A stretch of 43,281 nt of DNA from Chiloscyllium plagiosum (taxonomy: Eukaryota): the NCBI RefSeq assembly GCF_004010195.1, contig NC_057719.1, positions 23,501,217-23,544,497 on the forward strand. Direction: 5' to 3'. The position numbers were made by a program, and so were the translations under genes. Position 1 is the first letter of the stretch. Every line of letters starts with the position of its first letter. Below the pieces are notes generated by a model. The model saw only the letters and a program-made list of their open reading frames with translations. It was not told the origin of the DNA and made no database searches. Below are positions 1,373 to 43,281 of the stretch, piece by piece.

Positions 1373-1620
1373 TTCTTTTCCATGTTTTATCATTCCTCAG
1401 TTTTCCCAAGTCACAGACTATTGAGCACAATTCACTCCAATCGCTGCAGCCACAAGACTCTATCCCTCATTAAGGTGCAGCCTGATTTTAACACAACTGG
1501 TGAATAGTGTGGTTAGCTCTGATTATGTACAGCCATCATTCTAATTCACAGGAATCTCAAGGTTGGTGGATTATTCATATATCATGATTCCCATGCCTAT
1601 TTTAGGGGGTCACTCACTCG

Positions 1621-2041
1621 GGGTTGTTTTCCCTGGAGGGTCAAAAGCTGAGGGGTGACCTCATAGAGGTGTATAAAATTATGAGGGGCATGAATAGGAT
1701 AAATAGACAAAGTCTTTTCCCTGGGGTGGGGGAGTCCAGAACTAGAGGGCATAGGTTTAGGGTGAGAGGGGAAAGATATAAAAGGGACCTAAGGGGCAAC
1801 TTTTTCTTGCAGAGGGTGGTACATGTATGGAATGAGCTGCCAGAGGATGTGGTGGAGGGCTGGCACAATTACAACATTTAAAAGGCATCTGGGTGGGATA
1901 CGAATAGGAAGGGTTTAGAGGGATATAGGCCAAGTGCTGGAAAATGGGACTACATTAGGTTGGGATATCTGGTCGACATGGACGAGTTGGACTGAATGGT
2001 CTGTTTCCATGCTGTACATCTCTATGACTCTATGACTCTAT
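1621..2041 (+). mobile_element. 5'-truncated CR1/HER1 LINE 3' end
   Basis: ORF 1624-1881 (FSLE..KLRGDLIEVYKIMRG..RTRGH..FFLQRVVHVWNELP) is the CR1 ORF2 C-terminus. Ends in a (ctatgact)n tail at ~2021-2040. Confidence 0.92.
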
Positions 2042-2087
2042 ACTTGCCCCTCTCTTACAGGGCAAGGTTGTATACGTTCAGAGGTAG

Positions 2088-2453
2088 AGTCAAGATTAGA
2101 GTAGTGCTGGATATGCACAGCAGGTCAGGGAGCATCCGAGGAGCAGGAAAATTGATGTTTCGGGCCAAAGCCCTTCATCAGGATTTTATAAAATTCTATG
2201 AGGTCACCCCTCAGCTTTCAACACTCCAGGGAAAACAGCCTTGAGTGAGTGACCCCTAAAATAGGCATGGTAATCAAGATATATGAAATAACTACCAAAC
2301 TTGAGATTGACCAGGAATTTCCTGATGAATGGCTTTGGCCCGAAACATCAACTTTCCTGCTCCTCAGATGCTGCCTGACCTGCAGTGCTTTTCCAGCACT
2401 ACTCTGACCTTGACTTTAATCTCCAGCATCTGCAGTACCCACTTTCGCCTCCA
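2088..2453 (+). mobile_element. Inverted Penelope-like element with 11 bp TSD and a captured local-DNA spacer
   Basis: Arms ~2088-2183 and 2320-2417 (about 90% identical by eye). TSD ttcagaggtag at 2077-2087 and 2454-2464. Hammerhead-like CTGATGA..GAAA in both arms. Spacer 2184-2308 is the reverse complement of 1553-1678. Confidence 0.85.
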
Positions 2454-3424
2454 TTCAGAGGTAGCAGAATTAACCGGTAGGATCAGTTGTATTGGAACAC
2501 TCAAAAAGAGATGGCACTGACCATTACTGCGATGCTCAATTTAATCCCTTGACTATGTTTAAATCTAAAGCCACATTTCTGCCTTAGACAATATCATGTC
2601 ATTTACCAGCCTTTTGACTCTCTGCTATCCAGTTCTGGTCCATTTCAATTGACAAGCCAGAAGTTCTAGTTTAAAGGGTGGATGATCAGATGACACTGGA
2701 TATTCCCTCTTAGTTTGTTCACATTATAAAAAAACCCTATTACATTATCGTCAACTTAAATCAAGTCCTCAGTGGAATTAGATAAGATTATTACTGAATT
2801 ACTCCAATTAATTTGAAAATGTGGAATTAGAAACTGTAAAGAACAGATCATCTGGAAATTCAACATTTATGGTAGAGGATGGTTTAATGTTTGATAATGA
2901 CTTTAGTATGTTATTAAATCCTAAATATGGGGAGCCCTTATATTGAAATAGACGCCCACATTTCCAAAGAGTGTTTGAAATGTGACTAGATGTGAAACAA
3001 GATAAAATTATTTTTACAGCTTTCATCTCAAAAAGTAAATGCTTATCCAAAAAGATTGCCAAATTGTATGGTCTGTGAAGTACACTGAAAAAGAAATCAA
3101 ACTCAGATTGGCATCCTGCATTGTATCAATGCAGTAATTCTAGTTTACTGTTTCTATTCTAAAGTCTCTCAGGAAATGGTCAGCATCAATAATCCAAAGC
3201 ACTTATTAAGATATGTAGCCAATAATTTTTATTATTCCTTCTATTTGCGTTGTCTTGGTTGTAAAACTTAAAAGATAAAACATAATTTCTCCCTACTCAA
3301 TTTCTTTCATTGCCTTACAAAAGGTTCAGGATATATGTCTGAACTTTGACCAATCATGCAAATTAGAATCAGTAGCTTTATATCTCTCATGACTTTTACT
3401 TCTATTGAAGTCAATGGAAATTAA

Positions 3425-3645
3425 GTTAAAAATCACACAACACCAGGTTATAGTCCAACAGGTTTAATTGGAAGCACACTAGCTTTCGGAGTGACGCTCC
3501 TTCATCAGGTCATCAGGACAATCACCTGATGAAGGACCGTCGTTCCGAAAGCTAGTGTGCTTCCAATTAAACCTGTTGGACTATAACCTGGTGTTGCGTG
3601 ATTTTTAACTGTGTACACCCCAGTCCAACACCGGAATCTCCGAAT
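3425..3645 (+). mobile_element. Inverted Penelope-like element (second family) with 12 bp TSD
   Basis: 87 bp arms 3424-3510 and 3524-3610, 13 bp spacer, tail 3611-3645. TSD aatggaaattaa at 3413-3424 and 3646-3657. Confidence 0.88.
3523..3557 (+). ncRNA. Minimal type I hammerhead ribozyme motif (predicted)
   Basis: CAC | CTGATGA (3526-3532) A | GGA..TCC | GAAA G-C TA | GTG. Helix I is CAC/GTG. Predicted cleavage after CUA at 3554. The left arm holds the antisense copy with helix II GGAG/CTCC. Confidence 0.6.
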
Positions 3646-3912
3646 AATGGAAATTAAAGTTGGGAGGAATGTAAAATGGACTGGTGTGTCACTATCACTT
3701 GTCTTACTCTATTGAACAAAGTTGAAACCCACCTTTAACTCCTTTAGCATTTCTGCATCCTTCTGTACAAATCATCAAAGGTTAAGTATGAATTAAAGGC
3801 AAGTCATCTTGATACATCTGTTTGAAGTGTGCAGTTGTTTCGATTGGAAATAGTTGGGTTTACAAAATAGTGTGGTTAATGCAAGTTTAAAATTACTTTG
3901 CCCATTGATAGA

Positions 3913-4502: not shown

Positions 4503-5024
4503 TACATACAGGTTTGTTTCGAAAACAATCCTGACAGCCTGTAACATAATTAAAATGTGAGGTATTTCTTAAAATTAATGATCAAAAGTTAATGACTTGG
4601 AAATATAAATTGCCTTTATTGATTGAGTTTTAATATCTGGTCACAGCTTCAGTATTTCAATGATCTAAAGGGATTAATGATGCACAACTAACATCTTGGT
4701 GATATTGCAGTCTCCTAATTAGCCGAAAGCATGAAGTTGTGAAAATGGACTGAAAAAATTTGTTCTAACTGACAAGTACAAGTGAAAAATTTGACTTTAT
4801 TTATATGGAATCCCTGCAGGAAAGCAAATATCCCAGTAAGATCGCAATGGTTTAGGAAAGCAACGTCAGTGGTGAAATAAATCTTCAAATTCACCCCACG
4901 ATCATTAGTTAACCATTAGCTCCCTTACTTCTCTGCAAAATACCTTTAGATAGCCATAACAATTTCTACTGATCTTAAATGAAGAGCATGACACTATCCC
5001 AAATTGTTGTATTATTTTCTCTCT

Positions 5025-5458
5025 GGGATATTTACAAACGAGAGGGACCGTATTGTTGAAGAGGAGAGTGTGAAATGGACTGGTAAGCTAGAGGAGATAC
5101 TTGTTAGGAAGGAAGATGTGTTGGACATTTTGAATAACTTGAGGATAGACAAGTCCTCTGGGCCTGACGGGTTATATCTGGGATTATGTGGGAAGCAAGA
5201 GAGGAAATTGCAGAGCCGTTGGCAATGATCTTTTCGTCTTCACTGTCCACAGGGGACTGGAGAGTGGCGAATGTTGTGTCCCTGTTCAAAAAAGGGAATA
5301 GGGATAACCCCAGGAATTACAGGCCAGTTAGTCTTACTTCAGTGGTAGGCAAAGTAATGGAAAGGGTACTGAGGGATAGGATTTATGAGTATCTGGAAAG
5401 ACACTGCTTGATTAGGGACAGCCAGCACGGATTTGTGAAGGGGAGGTCTTGCCTTACA
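5025..5458 (+). mobile_element. CR1 LINE fragment (start of RT domain)
   Basis: Encodes DKSSGPDG and DWRVANVVSLFKKGNRDNPRNYRPVSLTSVVGKVME..SQHGFVKGRSCLT, which are canonical CR1 RT N-terminal motifs. Confidence 0.93.
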
Positions 5459-5471: not shown

Positions 5472-6043
5472 CAATAAGCTTCTATCTGCAATTTGAGAGG
5501 GAGAGGGTACAGTCGGAAGTGACAGCATTTCTGTTGAATAAAGGGAATTATGGAGCTATGAGGGAGGAGCTGGCCAAAGTTCAATTGTGCAATACCTTAG
5601 CAGGGATGACCGTGGAGGAACAATGGCGGATATTTCTGTGTATAATGCAGAAGTTGCAGGATCAGTTCATTCCTAAAAGGAAGAAAGATCCCAGGAGGAG
5701 GCATGGGCGGCCGTGGCTGACGAGGGAAGTTAAGAAACATATAAAGTTAAAAGAGAAAAGGGAGAACATAGCAAAGATAATTAGGAAAACTGAGGACTGG
5801 GAAGCTTTTAAAGAGCAACAGAGGATTACTAAGAAGGAAATACGCAGAGGAAAAATGAGATATGAAGGTTAACTGGCCAATAATGAGTGGTGGGGGCATG
5901 GAATGCGCTGCCTGTGGTAGTGGTAGAGTCAGAATCTTTGGTGACCTTTAAGCGGCATTTGGATAGGTACATGGATGGGTGCTTAAGCTAGGACAAATGT
6001 TCGGCACAACATCGTGGGCCGAAGGGCCTGTTCTGTGCTGTAT
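5472..6043 (+). mobile_element. CR1 LINE pieces: EN-RT linker region joined directly to the 3' terminus
   Basis: 5472-5880 encodes KGNYGAMREELAKV..VEEQWRIF..FIPKRKK..PWLTREVK. 5885-6043 is the 3' end and matches the reverse complement of ~43020-43180. Confidence 0.88.
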
Positions 6044-6478
6044 TGTTCTATGTTCTATGTTCTATGTTCTATGTTCTATGTTCTATGTTCTATGTTCTAT
6101 GTTCTATGTTCTATGTTCTATGTTCTATGTTCTATGTTCTATGTTCTATGTTCTATGTTCTATGTTCTATGTTCTATGTTCTATGTTCTATGTTCTATGT
6201 TCTATGTTCTATGTTCTATGTTCTATGTTCTATGTTCTATGTTCTATGTTCTATGTTCTATGTTCTATGTTCTATGTTCTATGTTCTATGTTCTATGTTC
6301 TATGTTCTATGTTCTATGTTCTATGTTCTATGTTCTATGTTCTATGTTCTATGTTCTATGTTCTATGTTCTATGTTCTATGTTCTATGTTCTATGTTCTA
6401 TGTTCTATGTTCTATGTTCTATGTTCTATGTTCTATGTTCTATGTTCTATGTTCTATGTTCTATGTTCTATGTTCTAT
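6044..6478 (+). repeat. (TGTTCTA)n heptamer tandem repeat, about 62 copies
   Basis: Apparently perfect 7 bp period over 435 bp, directly continuing the CR1 3' tail. Confidence 0.98.
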
Positions 6479-6990: not shown

Positions 6991-7341
6991 CCATTACTGT
7001 ACTGTTAAGTAATATATAATAATATGTAATTTACTGATGTATGTCTACTTTCTACCTAAGATTAAATTATTATCAATAAGAACAGTTGGTGTCAAATCCA
7101 TACAAGACATCCACATAGTGCCTGACATTACAAGCACACCAAAGTATATGAGATTAAGGTTATTTTCCATATCAATGTATGTTAGGTTTTTGTTTTTCAT
7201 CTTATGCATTGATGAAAATATCTTATCTGTACCTTTTCACGTTTGGCCGAAGCTGATTAATTACATAGCAATTGTTTAGTTCAACTAGTGTATGACTTGG
7301 CTCCTGTAATGGAGGATGATCCTGAAATTCTATGCACAAGT

Positions 7342-7642: not shown

Positions 7643-8121
7643 ACACTTGCGGAAGATGATAAGGGCCATGGGTTTAGAAGGTACAGTCTCAGGACCCTTG
7701 GTGAATTTCTGTTGGGCATCTGGTAGTGGTATGCACTACTGCTACTGAGCGTCTTTGATGGAGGAAGTGAACAGAATATTTATGTCTATGTAAGCGAGTT
7801 AATGTTATTATATTTAACCTCAGTAGTTTCACTGTGTTGATGACTTATGCATAGAATTTCAGGATCATCCTCCATTACAGGAGCCAAGTCATACACTAGT
7901 TGAACTAAACAATTGCTATGTAATTAATCAGCTTCGGCCAAACGTGAAAAGGTACAGATAAGATATTTTCATCTAATGCATAAGATGAAAAACAAAAACC
8001 TAACATACATTGATATGGAAAATAACTTTAATCTCATATACTTTGGTGTGCTTGTAATGTCAGGTACTATGTGGATGTCTTGTATGGATTTGACACCAAC
8101 TGTTCTTATTGATAATAATTT

Positions 8122-8247
8122 TTTAAAAAAATTCTGTGTTACGATCGAGCCCTCCACAATCACCTGATGAAGAAGCATCGCTCCGAAAGCTAGTGTGCTT
8201 CCAATTAAACCTGTTGGACTATAACCTGGTGTTGTGTGATTTTTAAC
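8122..8247 (+). mobile_element. Penelope-like 3' fragment with hammerhead motif (same family as 3425-3645)
   Basis: 8157-8247 matches 3519-3609. CTGATGA at 8164-8170, GAAAGCTA at 8185-8192. Flanked by taattt, and absent from the left arm of the inverted duplication. Confidence 0.85.
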
Positions 8248-8324
8248 TAATTTAATCTACTTATATCTTAGGTAGAAAGTAGACATACATCAGTAAATTA
8301 TATATTATTATATATTACTTAACA

Positions 8325-12892: not shown

Positions 12893-14562
12893 TCTCACTA
12901 ATGAGCATTGATTAAGCTTGTTTCCATATATTTGCAATTCAATATCAGTCTACCCCCATCTCATTTCTTTGCACTTCTCTGATCTCTCCCTCCCTGGGAA
13001 ACTAATGGTACCAGTTTCCAAAATGAAACTGACAGCAATTACCTGGTGATAACAGCTTGCGTCCCTAGACTGTGTGTCTTCACCACAAAGTCCCTGCAAG
13101 CTCCACAAACATTGTCTCAACATGGGATCATCAACAAATCACCAGCTTCACCACATTGACATGGCTGCTCTCTGAATAACTCACAAACCATTTCAGCCCT
13201 CCAGGATTCTACCTTAAAGCTCAGGGACACCCAGTTTTGCATACTTCTGCAAGTTGCTTTATACAAGGAGTGACAAATCCATCTTTCTGTGCACTCGCTT
13301 TGCACTTACTTGGTACTTCTCAGCCTCTCGGCCAGACTTGCTTTTCAAAGCATAGGGAGAGGCCAGTAGCTTATCACAGTCCAGAGCACTGGACAGTCAA
13401 AGGGAAGTCATGTTGCTGAATGACACCATGCCACATCAATGTCACATCTGCAGAATGTGCCAGCAACTTACACAACAAACCCACTGCATGTGTATAAATT
13501 AAATGATCGCTGTTAAAAGTGAAATGGAAATCAGTCTTTAGTGGGAAGAAGTGGTCGATAATCAATCAGAGGTAATGCAATAATCCATCATGAGGCTCGT
13601 CTGATTCCAGTCCAGGGATTCTGACCTGGGCAGTCCTACAGGACTATTGTCACCAGTGCAAGGATTACATCTATGTCAGTTGGAGTGCAGTGGAGACATC
13701 AAACCAGGATATGGGCAGATATTTCCAGCAATGAGTCAAAGGGAGGGACTGAGTACAATGCCAGTGGATGAATTAGCATCAAGTGGTGATGCAGGAGACA
13801 TGGTGAAGTGTGTCCAGTGCAGAAGGCAGGAAGTGTGAATAGTTTGGTGGGCTAAGGTAGCTAAGAGCCATTGAATGGACAGCTGGTACCAAATGTTGCA
13901 AAGTCCCAGCAGCAGCAAGCACTTTTGTATCTCCTGCCGTACAATTCTATGAGATAGGTATCACAGAAGCCAGGTACACAATTAATGAGATGAAGAGCAG
14001 AAGATTCTTTAGGAAAATCTGACCAAAGCCATGGGCAGACTGCCAGCCATAACTGCTCTGCCATTCAATGAAATCATGGCTGATCTGATAATCCTCAACT
14101 CCACTTTCCTGCCCTTTCCCCATATACCTTGATTCACTTACTGATTAGAAATCTGTCCCCCTCAGCCTTGAATATAATTATTGGCCCAACCTTAACCAAC
14201 CTCGGCAATAAAGAATTCCACAGATTCATTACCATCTGAGAGAAGAAATTCCTCCTTATCTCTGTCTTAAATGGGTGACCCCATATTATGATATTATTGT
14301 GCTCTGATTCTAGACTCTTTCACAAGTGGCAACAACCATTCTGGATCTACCCTGTCAAGTCCCTCAGAATCTCATGTTTAAATACGGTCTTCTCTCATTC
14401 TTCTAAACTCAAATGAGAACAGGTCCAATGAATTTAACCTGTCTCCCTATACCTGCTATCAACCTAGTGGACCTGTTCTGAACTGTCTCCAGTGCCAGCA
14501 TGTCTTTCCTTTGATAAGAGGCACAATACTATTCACAGAATTCCTGTTGTGGTCTCATCAGT

Positions 14563-14801
14563 TTCTAGATTAGAGTGGTGCTGGAAAAGCACAGCAGTTC
14601 AGGTAGCTTCCGAGGAGCGACAAAATCGACATTTCAGGCAAAAGCCCTTCATCAGGAATACAGCTGTATTCCTGATGAAGGGCATTTGCCCGAAACGTCG
14701 ATTTTGTTGCTCCTTGGATGCTGCCCGAACTGCTGTGCTTTTCCAGCACCACTCTAATCTAGAATCTAGTTTCCAGCATCTGCAGTCATTATTTTCATCC
14801 C
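14563..14801 (+). mobile_element. Spacer-less palindromic Penelope-like element with 14 bp TSD
   Basis: 101 bp arms centred on cag|ctg at 14663/14664. Tail 14765-14801. TSD gtggtctcatcagt at 14549-14562 and 14802-14815. Confidence 0.9.
14670..14701 (+). ncRNA. Minimal hammerhead ribozyme motif with intact core (predicted)
   Basis: TC | CTGATGA (14672-14678) A | GGGC attt GCCC | GAAA C-G TC | GA. GUC triplet ends at 14699. Helix I is only 2 bp locally. Confidence 0.6.
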
Positions 14802-14829
14802 GTGGTCTCATCAGTGTCTTGTATATGGA

Positions 14830-20035: not shown

Positions 20036-20301
20036 TTAGTTGGTTGATGCACATGCAGTGTGCTTGCTGTAGAAGCTGCTGGTACATGTTTTAGGTGTGA
20101 CATTGACCTGGCACACTGCTGTGTAAATTGGTAACAAACAGCCTGCCTCTTTACCTGTGCTAAATAACAACACCAGCCACAAAGCCTGTAAGTTAGAGCA
20201 GAAGAGCCGATAGACTAAAAAGCAATGCAAACCAAAGATGCTGGTGACCTCCGAGTCAGTGCAAGGTGAGTGAGTGCCAGGACATTAAGCCAAGAGTCAT
20301 A

Positions 20302-20496
20302 AGATTCTGGATTAGTAGTGCTGGAAAAGCACAGCAGTTCAGGTAGCATCCGAGGAGCAGTAAAATCGACGCCTTGAAGGAGTCCCTCTCCCACTGCAAC
20401 TCTCAGGTCATTTCCTCTGCCCTGAAGATGCTGTGCTTTTCCAGCACCACTAATCCAGAATCTGGTTTCCAGCATCAGCAGTCATTGTTTTTACCT
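20302..20496 (+). mobile_element. Inverted Penelope-like element with 13 bp TSD (same family as 14563-14801)
   Basis: Left arm 20302-20371, right arm ~20429-20463, ~57 bp spacer, tail 20464-20496. TSD aagagtcataaga at 20292-20304 and 20497-20509. Confidence 0.85.
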
Positions 20497-20959
20497 AAGA
20501 GTCATAAGAATGTCAATGCATGCATGTCAGTGCACAAGAGACGACCCGACAGAAGCATGGAAGTCATCAGTGGTGCTGCACTCTAACGTGAAGGGCTGAA
20601 GTGGCAAGAAAGTTGCTCTGAGAGCTGGTATGATGATATGGTGAGGCTGGTGCCTACTTGCATTGTTGAAGGTAGAAGAGGATAGACCATGGAGCATTCA
20701 GAGATATGCTGATGATGGTGGATAAAAGCCCAGTGAACTGCTGCTGCTAGGGTAACCTCCTGAACTTTCATGTCAGGAAATGGCACCATCCAAGATGGCG
20801 CCAACACTAGATGACCCTTTTTGAGCTCTCCATAGCAGATCTTATTTTCACATTTCTTACAACCATTCCACACTTTTAAACCTAAATTCTAAGCCTGTAA
20901 ACTTATTAGTGATGTTCTGTTAAATCTACCTACAGGTCTGAGGCTTCCCTGCTGTTATT

Positions 20960-42727: not shown

Positions 42728-43001
42728 CTGCCTCACAGCGCCAGAGACCTGGGTTCAATTCTTGCCTCAGGCGACTGACTGTGTGGAGTTTGCACATTCT
42801 CCCCGTGCCTGCGTGGGTTTCCTCCGGGTGCTCCGGTTTCCTCCCATAGTCCAAAAGTGTGCAGGTTAGATGAATTGGCCAAGCTAAATTGCCCGTAGTG
42901 TTAGGTGTCGGGGAATGGGTCTGGGTGGGTGCGCTTCGGCGGGTCGGTGTGGACTTGGTGGGCCGAAGGGCCTGTTTCCACACTGTAATCTAATCTAATC
43001 T
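42728..43001 (+). mobile_element. HE1-type SINE, 5'-truncated
   Basis: Matches 36138-36421 and ends (taatc)n. Confidence 0.93.
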
Positions 43002-43281
43002 AGAACATAGAACATAGAACAATACAGCACAGAACAGGCCCTTCGGCCCACGATGTTGTGCCGAACATTTGTCCTAGCTTAAGAACCCATCCATGTACCT
43101 ATCCAATTGCCGCTTAAAGGTCACCAAAGATTCTGACTCTACCACTCCCACAGGCAGCGCATTCCATGCCCCCACCACTCTCTGGGTAAAGAACCCACCC
43201 CTGACATCTCCCCTATACCTTCCACCCTTCACCATAATGTTATGTCCCCTTGTAACACTCTGTTGTACCAGGGGAAAAAGT
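43002..43281 (-). mobile_element. Young CR1 LINE 3' end (runs off the window)
   Basis: Reverse complement of 5885-6060, with a short (agaacat)n tail. Confidence 0.92.

Follow-up and report, generated by a model that had tools for sequence, protein, structure and literature searches.

Copies of nearby flanking DNA in the seams of head-to-head Penelope-like element insertions in a shark genome

Introduction

How does a piece of chromosomal DNA come to lie, inverted, between the two arms of a mobile element, a few hundred base pairs from the sequence that it copies? The question is raised by a locus at 1553..2464 of the window, by which we mean the whole 43,281-nucleotide stretch of Chiloscyllium plagiosum DNA that was analysed. 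A sequence-only reading of this locus had proposed that a Penelope-like element (PLE), while integrating, switched synthesis from its own template to nearby chromosomal DNA and back, and that PLEs act as duplicators of local sequence. Inverted PLE copies, a tail and a target site duplication (TSD) are standard features of these elements (PMC8557442, PMC3846280). The formation of their head-to-head structures is called undefined in the main text of PMC8557442, and self-priming has been proposed for the palindromes (PMC3846280). Captured DNA is of value here in that it can be counted and bears on the sealing of head-to-head PLE insertions, and an open joint at the centre of PLE palindromes offers a cheap, countable test in any PLE-rich genome.

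Structure of the insertion

The window insertion is a head-to-head PLE insertion with a copy of DNA from 0.4 kb away in its central seam. An exact 11-bp TSD, TTCAGAGGTAG, present on the plus strand at 2077..2087 and 2454..2464, encloses the whole unit. Within it, the left arm (2088..2183, minus strand) is a PLE pLTR stub without a tail, its head toward the spacer, and the right arm (2320..2453, plus strand) is a pLTR stub with a hammerhead-like core and a tail of about 35 nt (2419-2453). The stretches 2085-2183 and 2320-2418 align without gaps and are identical at 89 of 99 positions; only the right arm continues through its tail to 2453, and the arm lengths are 99 and 134 nt. Between the arms lies the captured spacer (2184..2308, minus strand), an inverted copy of the donor at 1553..1678 (plus strand), which ends 406 bp from the left arm. 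In a search within the window, 2183-2308 matched the reverse complement of 1553-1679 at 86.6% over 127 columns (E 2e-36). Arms, TSD and inverted spacer had been described in these terms from the sequence alone, and all were borne out. The joints hold only 1 nt of exact microhomology on the left and, on the right, a patch of 10-11 nt (2309..2319) between the donor copy and the right arm; the patch is absent from the donor and echoes the arm end, which is repeated by the CAGGAA within it.

The donor is itself composite, comprising about 68 bp of single-copy flank and the first 58 bp of a 5'-truncated CR1-type LINE (1621..2040, plus strand), whose 3' end consists of CTCTATGA repeats and at which loose read ends lie at 1620 and 2040. 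Thousands of reads diverge from the window sequence before 1620, marking the 5' truncation. The segment 1621-1740 translates without a stop; we take the translation to be the C-terminus of CR1 ORF2, and the family name CR1 is likewise our presumption.

Local origin of the captured DNA

The junction of flank and CR1 makes the donor recognizable. A genome search with 1500-1690, by a method that skips common words, scored 40 matches among 1571 candidates, and the junction was covered only by the donor and the spacer, the remaining 38 spanning the CR1 part alone. With the single-copy part (1540-1622) and the same word-skipping method, both of the two candidates were again donor and spacer. The donor had been expected to be specific to this locus, and the chimera is indeed found at these two places only. 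Spacer and donor also have in common the CR1 variants 1644A, 1646A and 1662C, where other copies mostly carry G, G and T; among the other fetched CR1 copies these variants occur in 5/52, 5/53 and 5/69, respectively, and the first two occur together in 0/52. These private variants indicate that the spacer descends from the neighbouring CR1 copy and that the CR1 predates the PLE, an order of events that had also been read from the sequence. A dispersed-repeat origin of the spacer was ruled out by the two-place chimera and the private variants.

Related species retain parts of the same structure. In organism B, a second species, a contig spans 2185-2360 with 10 differences and includes the spacer-arm joint; by hand reading, four of its seven listed spacer differences restore the donor letter and three are private to B. 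In organism C, one contig covers 2378-2800 and another 1344-1654. An empty site, which had been suggested as a check, was sought in organisms B and C and was not seen, each holding parts of the element. No contig or long read ran across the whole element; the same-species raw reads, about 4 in 100 of a run, gave no depth on single-copy parts. The capture at the window locus is real and old, and the phenomenon, as described below, is recurrent.

Identity of the element

The window copy has no ORF. At two other loci, L118 and L106, the same arm lies directly 3' of a decayed ORF; the end of this ORF resembles a GIY-YIG domain, and two cysteines stand between its motifs. In the Atlas, this ORF end adjoins the GIY-YIG and HTH_animal clusters at 0.95-0.97, family labels being carried by 12-22% of the members; Pfam returned no family for four ORF fragments, and no RT core was recovered. 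Upstream of the putative endonuclease stands a CX4CxxC linker, CHRRNCKTC in L106 and CHHKKCKMC in L118, which agrees with the zinc-finger-like CX2-5CxxC motif described in the RT-EN linker of the Neptune and Nematis clades (PMC8557442). Because of this linker motif, the element is probably a Neptune- or Nematis-type PLE.

The insertions themselves have features expected of PLEs. An inverted, 5'-truncated copy with a one-sided tail of 30-40 bp is found in the window and likewise at 31 of the 34 captures introduced below, and in the window a short TSD (11 bp, exact) surrounds the whole unit. In the right arm, the words CTGATGA and GAAAC flank a short hairpin at 2322-2345, an arrangement that we take to be a minimal hammerhead-like core. 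The ribozyme is a putative one: Rfam gave 15 matches at E up to 5, sub-threshold hairpin matches only and none of them a hammerhead, and single-strand folding of the region did not yield the ribozyme fold. Minimal hammerheads are known in Neptune PLEs of fish (PMC4209133).

Other palindromes and repeats in the window

Two further insertions of the same family lie in the window. The head-to-head palindrome at 14549-14815 has a 14-bp TSD (14549, 14802) and a single tail; its centre is a perfect palindrome and holds no foreign DNA. The insertion at 20292-20509 has a 13-bp TSD, a shortened right arm and a seam that is apparently about 50 nt of element-internal sequence. A second PLE family, which captures local DNA at other loci, is represented by the palindrome at 3413-3657, with arms 94% alike, a 7-nt seam and a 12-bp TSD. 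A third, related family forms a short palindrome at 1279-1372 with 39-nt arms, around which no TSD was found; its weak scores against microRNA hairpin models are no more than any hairpin would give. The window also holds a young inverted duplication (7003-7341 and 7843-8324; 98.6% over 279 bp and 98% over a further 60 bp), one side of which is interrupted by a second-family PLE arm at about 8156-8253, and a tandem array at 6029-6478 (period about 56 bp, about 99% identity). The array adjoins a repeat that has a 98% similar copy at 43001-43180.

Recurrence of local capture in the genome

A search with an exact 22-letter pattern counted at least 3170 head-to-head copies with gaps of 0-33 nt. Local capture was tested in 120 stretches of 9.9 kb, each centred on a head-to-head palindrome. 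Twenty were unselected (consecutive rows 16-35 of one palindrome list); 47 were all the new loci among the matches listed (50 of 96) for a pattern that excludes continuation of the element on both sides; and 53 were picked by eye for non-element spacers among the matches listed (50-100 per list). For five loci (L091, L092, L094, L143 and L149), results within +/-1.5 kb were known before the test. Element sequence was masked, which left 81 of the 120 spacers with at least 25 nt. The best match (at least 40 bits) of 42 of these 81 non-element spacers lay in their own stretch, ranked first of 121, where chance predicts about 0.7; the genome-wide enrichment anticipated by the sequence-only reading is therefore present. 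Eight of the 42 were removed, namely L120 and L150 (tandem copies of the whole element), L145 (donor adjoining another arm), L105, L122 and L204 (nested or complex), and L168 and L185 (one arm of at most 13 nt), leaving 34 clean local captures. In the sets not picked by eye, clean captures occurred at 14/48 loci (29 foreign spacers) from the pattern that excludes element continuation and at 2/20 loci (4 foreign) from the unselected rows. The second PLE family behaves similarly, 5 of 15 foreign spacers ranking their own locus first of 141, in a sample of 20 loci picked by eye among the matches listed (50 of 139).

Among spacers flanked by a TSD, a local donor was found for 18 of the 23 with at least 40 foreign nt. 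The other five include L114, which has a weak local match, and L180, whose donor lies on another chromosome. The L180 insertion (4829-5074 of its stretch; C6:116997306-116997551) is a TSD-flanked palindrome with a 246-nt spacer and a 15-bp TSD, and its single donor, at C41:16593905-16594146, is 92-93% alike and adjoins no PLE arm. Transduction by a retrotransposon was considered and rejected, since the window donor lies beside the target site and not beside another copy of the element; the distant donor of L180, with no PLE arm next to it, does not suggest transduction either.

Among the 39 spacers without a local donor, 10 have a duplication inside the spacer, which is expected of two separate insertions around native DNA, and 11 have an outer TSD, L112 having both. 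At L102, L176, L178, L179 and L198, head-to-head arms stand 60-275 bp apart, each with its own short duplication; these are separate or coupled single-arm insertions around native DNA. At L179, the arms are 100% alike around a palindromic spacer. In L145 (4825-5540), an arm with a 62-nt spacer occurs twice, about 500 bp apart and 98-99% alike; of these, one ends in a second arm and a TSD and the other continues into flank, and the template may have been a nearby single-arm insertion with its flank. A 43-nt "local" match at L017/L149 was rejected as element sequence, and the extra 221 nt at L174 are a dispersed repeat with no assignable donor.

Frequency was estimated by rough arithmetic, scaling the clean captures to 96, 64 and 122 loci and correcting for a filter pass rate of 9/16. 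This gives roughly 90 captures per 4000 or so exact-pattern palindromes, near 2%, and the genome total is likely a few hundred because the exact pattern misses decayed copies. The notion of PLEs as local sequence duplicators thus stands for only about 2% of palindromes, and the copies that were checked genome-wide did not spread. Being small, rare and apparently inert, the duplications have a minor effect on the genome.

Geometry and joints of the captures

Among the 34 clean captures, one tailed and one short arm are present in 31/34, and a TSD score of at least 8 was reached by 20/34, compared with 3/300 shuffled pairs. Donors lie 34-3929 bp away (median 411), within 1 kb in 28/34, and the matched length is 22-490 nt (median 89). 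Side and orientation are evenly spread, with 10 donors inverted on the tail side, 9 direct on the other side, 8 inverted on the other side and 7 direct on the tail side (p=0.90). The orientation bias that had been looked for is thus absent, and the inversion of the window spacer is incidental. Inverted donors are somewhat nearer than direct ones (medians 304 vs 583 bp, p=0.047).

With the window included, 70 joints could be compared, 42 with patches and 28 without. At the patch-free joints outside the window, microhomology of at least 4 nt was found at 9/27, compared with 5% of simulated blunt joints (p=6e-6), and of at least 2 nt at 15/27, compared with 28% (p=0.003). A separate set of short spacers (18-75 nt, mostly below 45; 25 after removal of 5 duplicates from 30) had arm ends re-copied in 9/25. 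Their own flank ranked first in 2/25 with about 1 expected, so a local origin of short spacers is unsupported. The captures therefore display both the direct and inverted flank-copied inserts and the microhomology with iterated patches that are looked for in theta-mediated insertion. Some are built of several segments (L133 and L132 in the first family, L241 in the second); in the seam of L241 (4874-5029), an inverted local copy of 109 nt comes first, and then a 47-nt fold-back derived from part of the donor already copied.

Timing of the capture

At the window locus, arms and capture are of the same age, as a single event would have it: non-CpG differences are 8/84 between the arms and 10/120 between spacer and donor (Fisher p=0.8). 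Pooling the 29 loci with sufficient arm sequence gives a non-CpG divergence of 174/1912 (9.1%) for arms and 220/3408 (6.5%) for captures; the captures are the less diverged (Wilcoxon p=0.04), and the correlation is not significant (Spearman 0.22). Two outliers stand apart, L177 with a capture at 0/212 against arms at 7/81, and L126 with 3/144 against 13/104, two tails and no TSD. When both are kept, ages over all 35 loci are heterogeneous (Breslow-Day p=0.034); with both removed, a choice made post hoc once the numbers were known, the 33 loci are homogeneous (Breslow-Day p=0.67, odds ratio 1.17) and correlated (Spearman 0.43, p=0.013). The youngest element, L119, has a capture that is also young (0/28 and 1/138). 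At L177 (4842-5061), the spacer equals its donor over all 212 sites, and the arms differ by 9%; contigs of four runs left spacer positions 4872-4917 uncovered, which is uninformative either way, and L177 represents either a late event private to it or a misassembly. From the homogeneous and correlated ages of the 33 loci, most captures are therefore coeval with insertion, and a minority may be later. That capture took place at about the time of insertion is, in our judgement, very probable.

Mechanism and alternative explanations

Flank DNA from either side and in either orientation, inside an intact TSD, implies that, around the time of insertion, the palindrome had an open DNA joint in its middle, and an open central joint favours double priming with end joining. 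Work with a purified PLE protein shows cleavage and extension of both target strands, from two RNA start sites whose spacing equals the tail (PMC11167929). In our model, the protein would cut both target strands about 9-17 bp apart and reverse-transcribe from both 3' ends, and two RNA start sites about 35 nt apart would give one tailed and one tail-less arm. Synthesis of both cDNAs would halt close to the hammerhead, so that two free 3' ends come to lie opposite one another; microhomology-type end joining, polymerase theta-like, would seal them, usually without an insert or with a short patch copied from the arm ends. In about 2% of cases, one end would prime on the exposed flank of either side, copy 20-500 nt, then release and anneal to the other end. 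Either cDNA end could fold back on its own flank, giving an inverted copy, or reach the other flank, giving a direct one, which predicts four equal classes of side and orientation; flanks and TSD would survive because the join is made between disposable cDNA ends. The direct and inverted flank copies, the microhomology and the iterated patches match the published signature of synthesis-dependent microhomology end joining (PMC7407515). We consider it moderately probable that the seam DNA was added at insertion by host repair synthesis during the joining of the two new cDNA ends. Several observations weigh against this. The "small" templated insertions of the main text of PMC7407515 are exceeded in length and distance by inserts of 100-490 nt with donors as far as 3.9 kb off, which may call for strand invasion or a polymerase of higher processivity. 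Were resected 3' strands the only template, fewer patches would be expected at the predicted priming joint than at the other, yet the former is patch-free at 9/34 and the latter at 18/34, a test that is ambiguous as to which joint primed. The trans donor of the 246-nt L180 spacer is beyond what local resection could supply, and no sequence feature identifies the polymerase. Against capture at insertion stand the heterogeneity with both outliers kept (p=0.034) and the younger look of the captures. Given the length and distance of some inserts, and the single trans donor, capture seems to follow more than one route.

The agent of synthesis may instead have been the element's own reverse transcriptase, jumping from RNA to exposed flank DNA and then back or across to the other cDNA end. 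Timing, intact TSD and the four classes are explained as well by this account as by host repair, the multi-segment captures (L133, L132 and L241) show template hopping, and template jumps have been proposed for PLEs (PMC3846280) and template switching inferred for L1 (PMC11702581). We nevertheless think it rather unlikely, as the iterated arm-end patches and microhomologies of 4-7 nt fit host end joining, and the extra 5' nucleotides of zebrafish L2 depend on host cell type (PMC4245944, PMC4760211). The earlier proposal of a template switch during integration thus keeps its local origin and loses ground on a switch by the element's own enzyme, the joints looking like host end-joining scars. 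The same four classes would result if a spacer-less palindrome had inserted, later suffered a central break while in hairpin or cruciform form, and been repaired with a local templated insert. Captures are on average slightly less diverged than arms, L177 and L126 are clear outliers, and the contig-free L177 spacer fits a late private event as well as an assembly fault. Late repair is improbable all the same: the ages agree at the window locus, whose joint is present in a second species, 33 loci are homogeneous and correlated at an odds ratio of 1.17, the youngest element has a young capture, and at least 3170 palindromes persist with gaps of at most 33 nt. Less probable still is an RNA template: reverse transcriptase would have copied a nascent transcript of the locus or, where the donor is distant, some unrelated RNA. 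It accounts for the donor of L180 on another chromosome, and L1 insertions from two RNAs are known (PMC11702581), but donors cluster within 1 kb on both sides (28/34), a far shorter scale than pre-mRNA. Chance similarity, a dispersed repeat or an assembly artefact has next to no probability. The donor is partly CR1, palindromes are hard to assemble, with L177 perhaps an example, and no long read spans the element; yet at the window locus this explanation is refuted by the two-place chimera, the organism B contig across 2185-2360 and the private variants in common with the local CR1, and the 13% difference between spacer and donor means that the spacer is not an assembler copy.

Host repair at the time of insertion remains the reading that we prefer. 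It is possible, and we offer it tentatively, that head-to-head PLEs in general form via a two-ended break, with both target strands reverse-transcribed and the cDNA ends joined, and not by self-priming of one RNA. The seams of thousands of insertions would then be a record of germline break repair (tract length, reach, cis versus trans donors) with intact flanks, and PLEs would routinely make small local and occasional inter-chromosomal duplications.

Comparison with known systems

Junction DNA templated by the flank is already known for L1 and L2, and we have not found it described for PLEs. A literature search of main texts, mostly of openly available papers, gave no account of local capture in PLE seams, and the main text of PMC9977147 contains nothing on local capture by PLEs. 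The published endonuclease-positive PLEs (PMC8557442, PMC3846280, PMC11167929) have the same head-to-head arms, single tail of about 35 nt and TSD; their pLTR adjoins an ORF that ends in a GIY-YIG-like domain, as it seems to at L118 and L106. There, however, the inverted copy is immediately adjacent, with a palindrome at the joint, and the main texts describe no local flank DNA in the seam. Solo pLTRs of Adineta vaga (PMC3846280) likewise enclose unrelated sequence between pLTRs inside a TSD, but the spacers are kb-sized and read as mobilisation in trans, with no local donor given in the main text, whereas the shark donors lie mostly within 1 kb.

Zebrafish L2 elements (ZfL2-1/2; PMC4245944, PMC4760211) acquire extra, flank-copied nucleotides when their 5' ends are joined, in a manner dependent on host factors. 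In L2, "several" nucleotides are added at a joint of element to genome, whereas the PLE captures are of 22-490 nt from 34-3929 bp away, at a joint of cDNA to cDNA. L1 twin priming (PMC11702581) shares the extension of both target ends, the preserved TSD and an internal microhomology joint, and three L1 insertions carry DNA templated near the site. Those cases are rare, somatic and attributed to processing of the unextended end, whereas the PLE captures are heritable, recurrent and placed between two arms that both start at the element's 3' end. Closest in the character of the scar is theta-mediated templated insertion (PMC7407515), with the same direct and inverted flank copies, microhomology and iterated patches. 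Such insertions are usually small, near the break and accompanied by deletion, whereas the captures in PLE seams are long and distant and leave the flanks intact.
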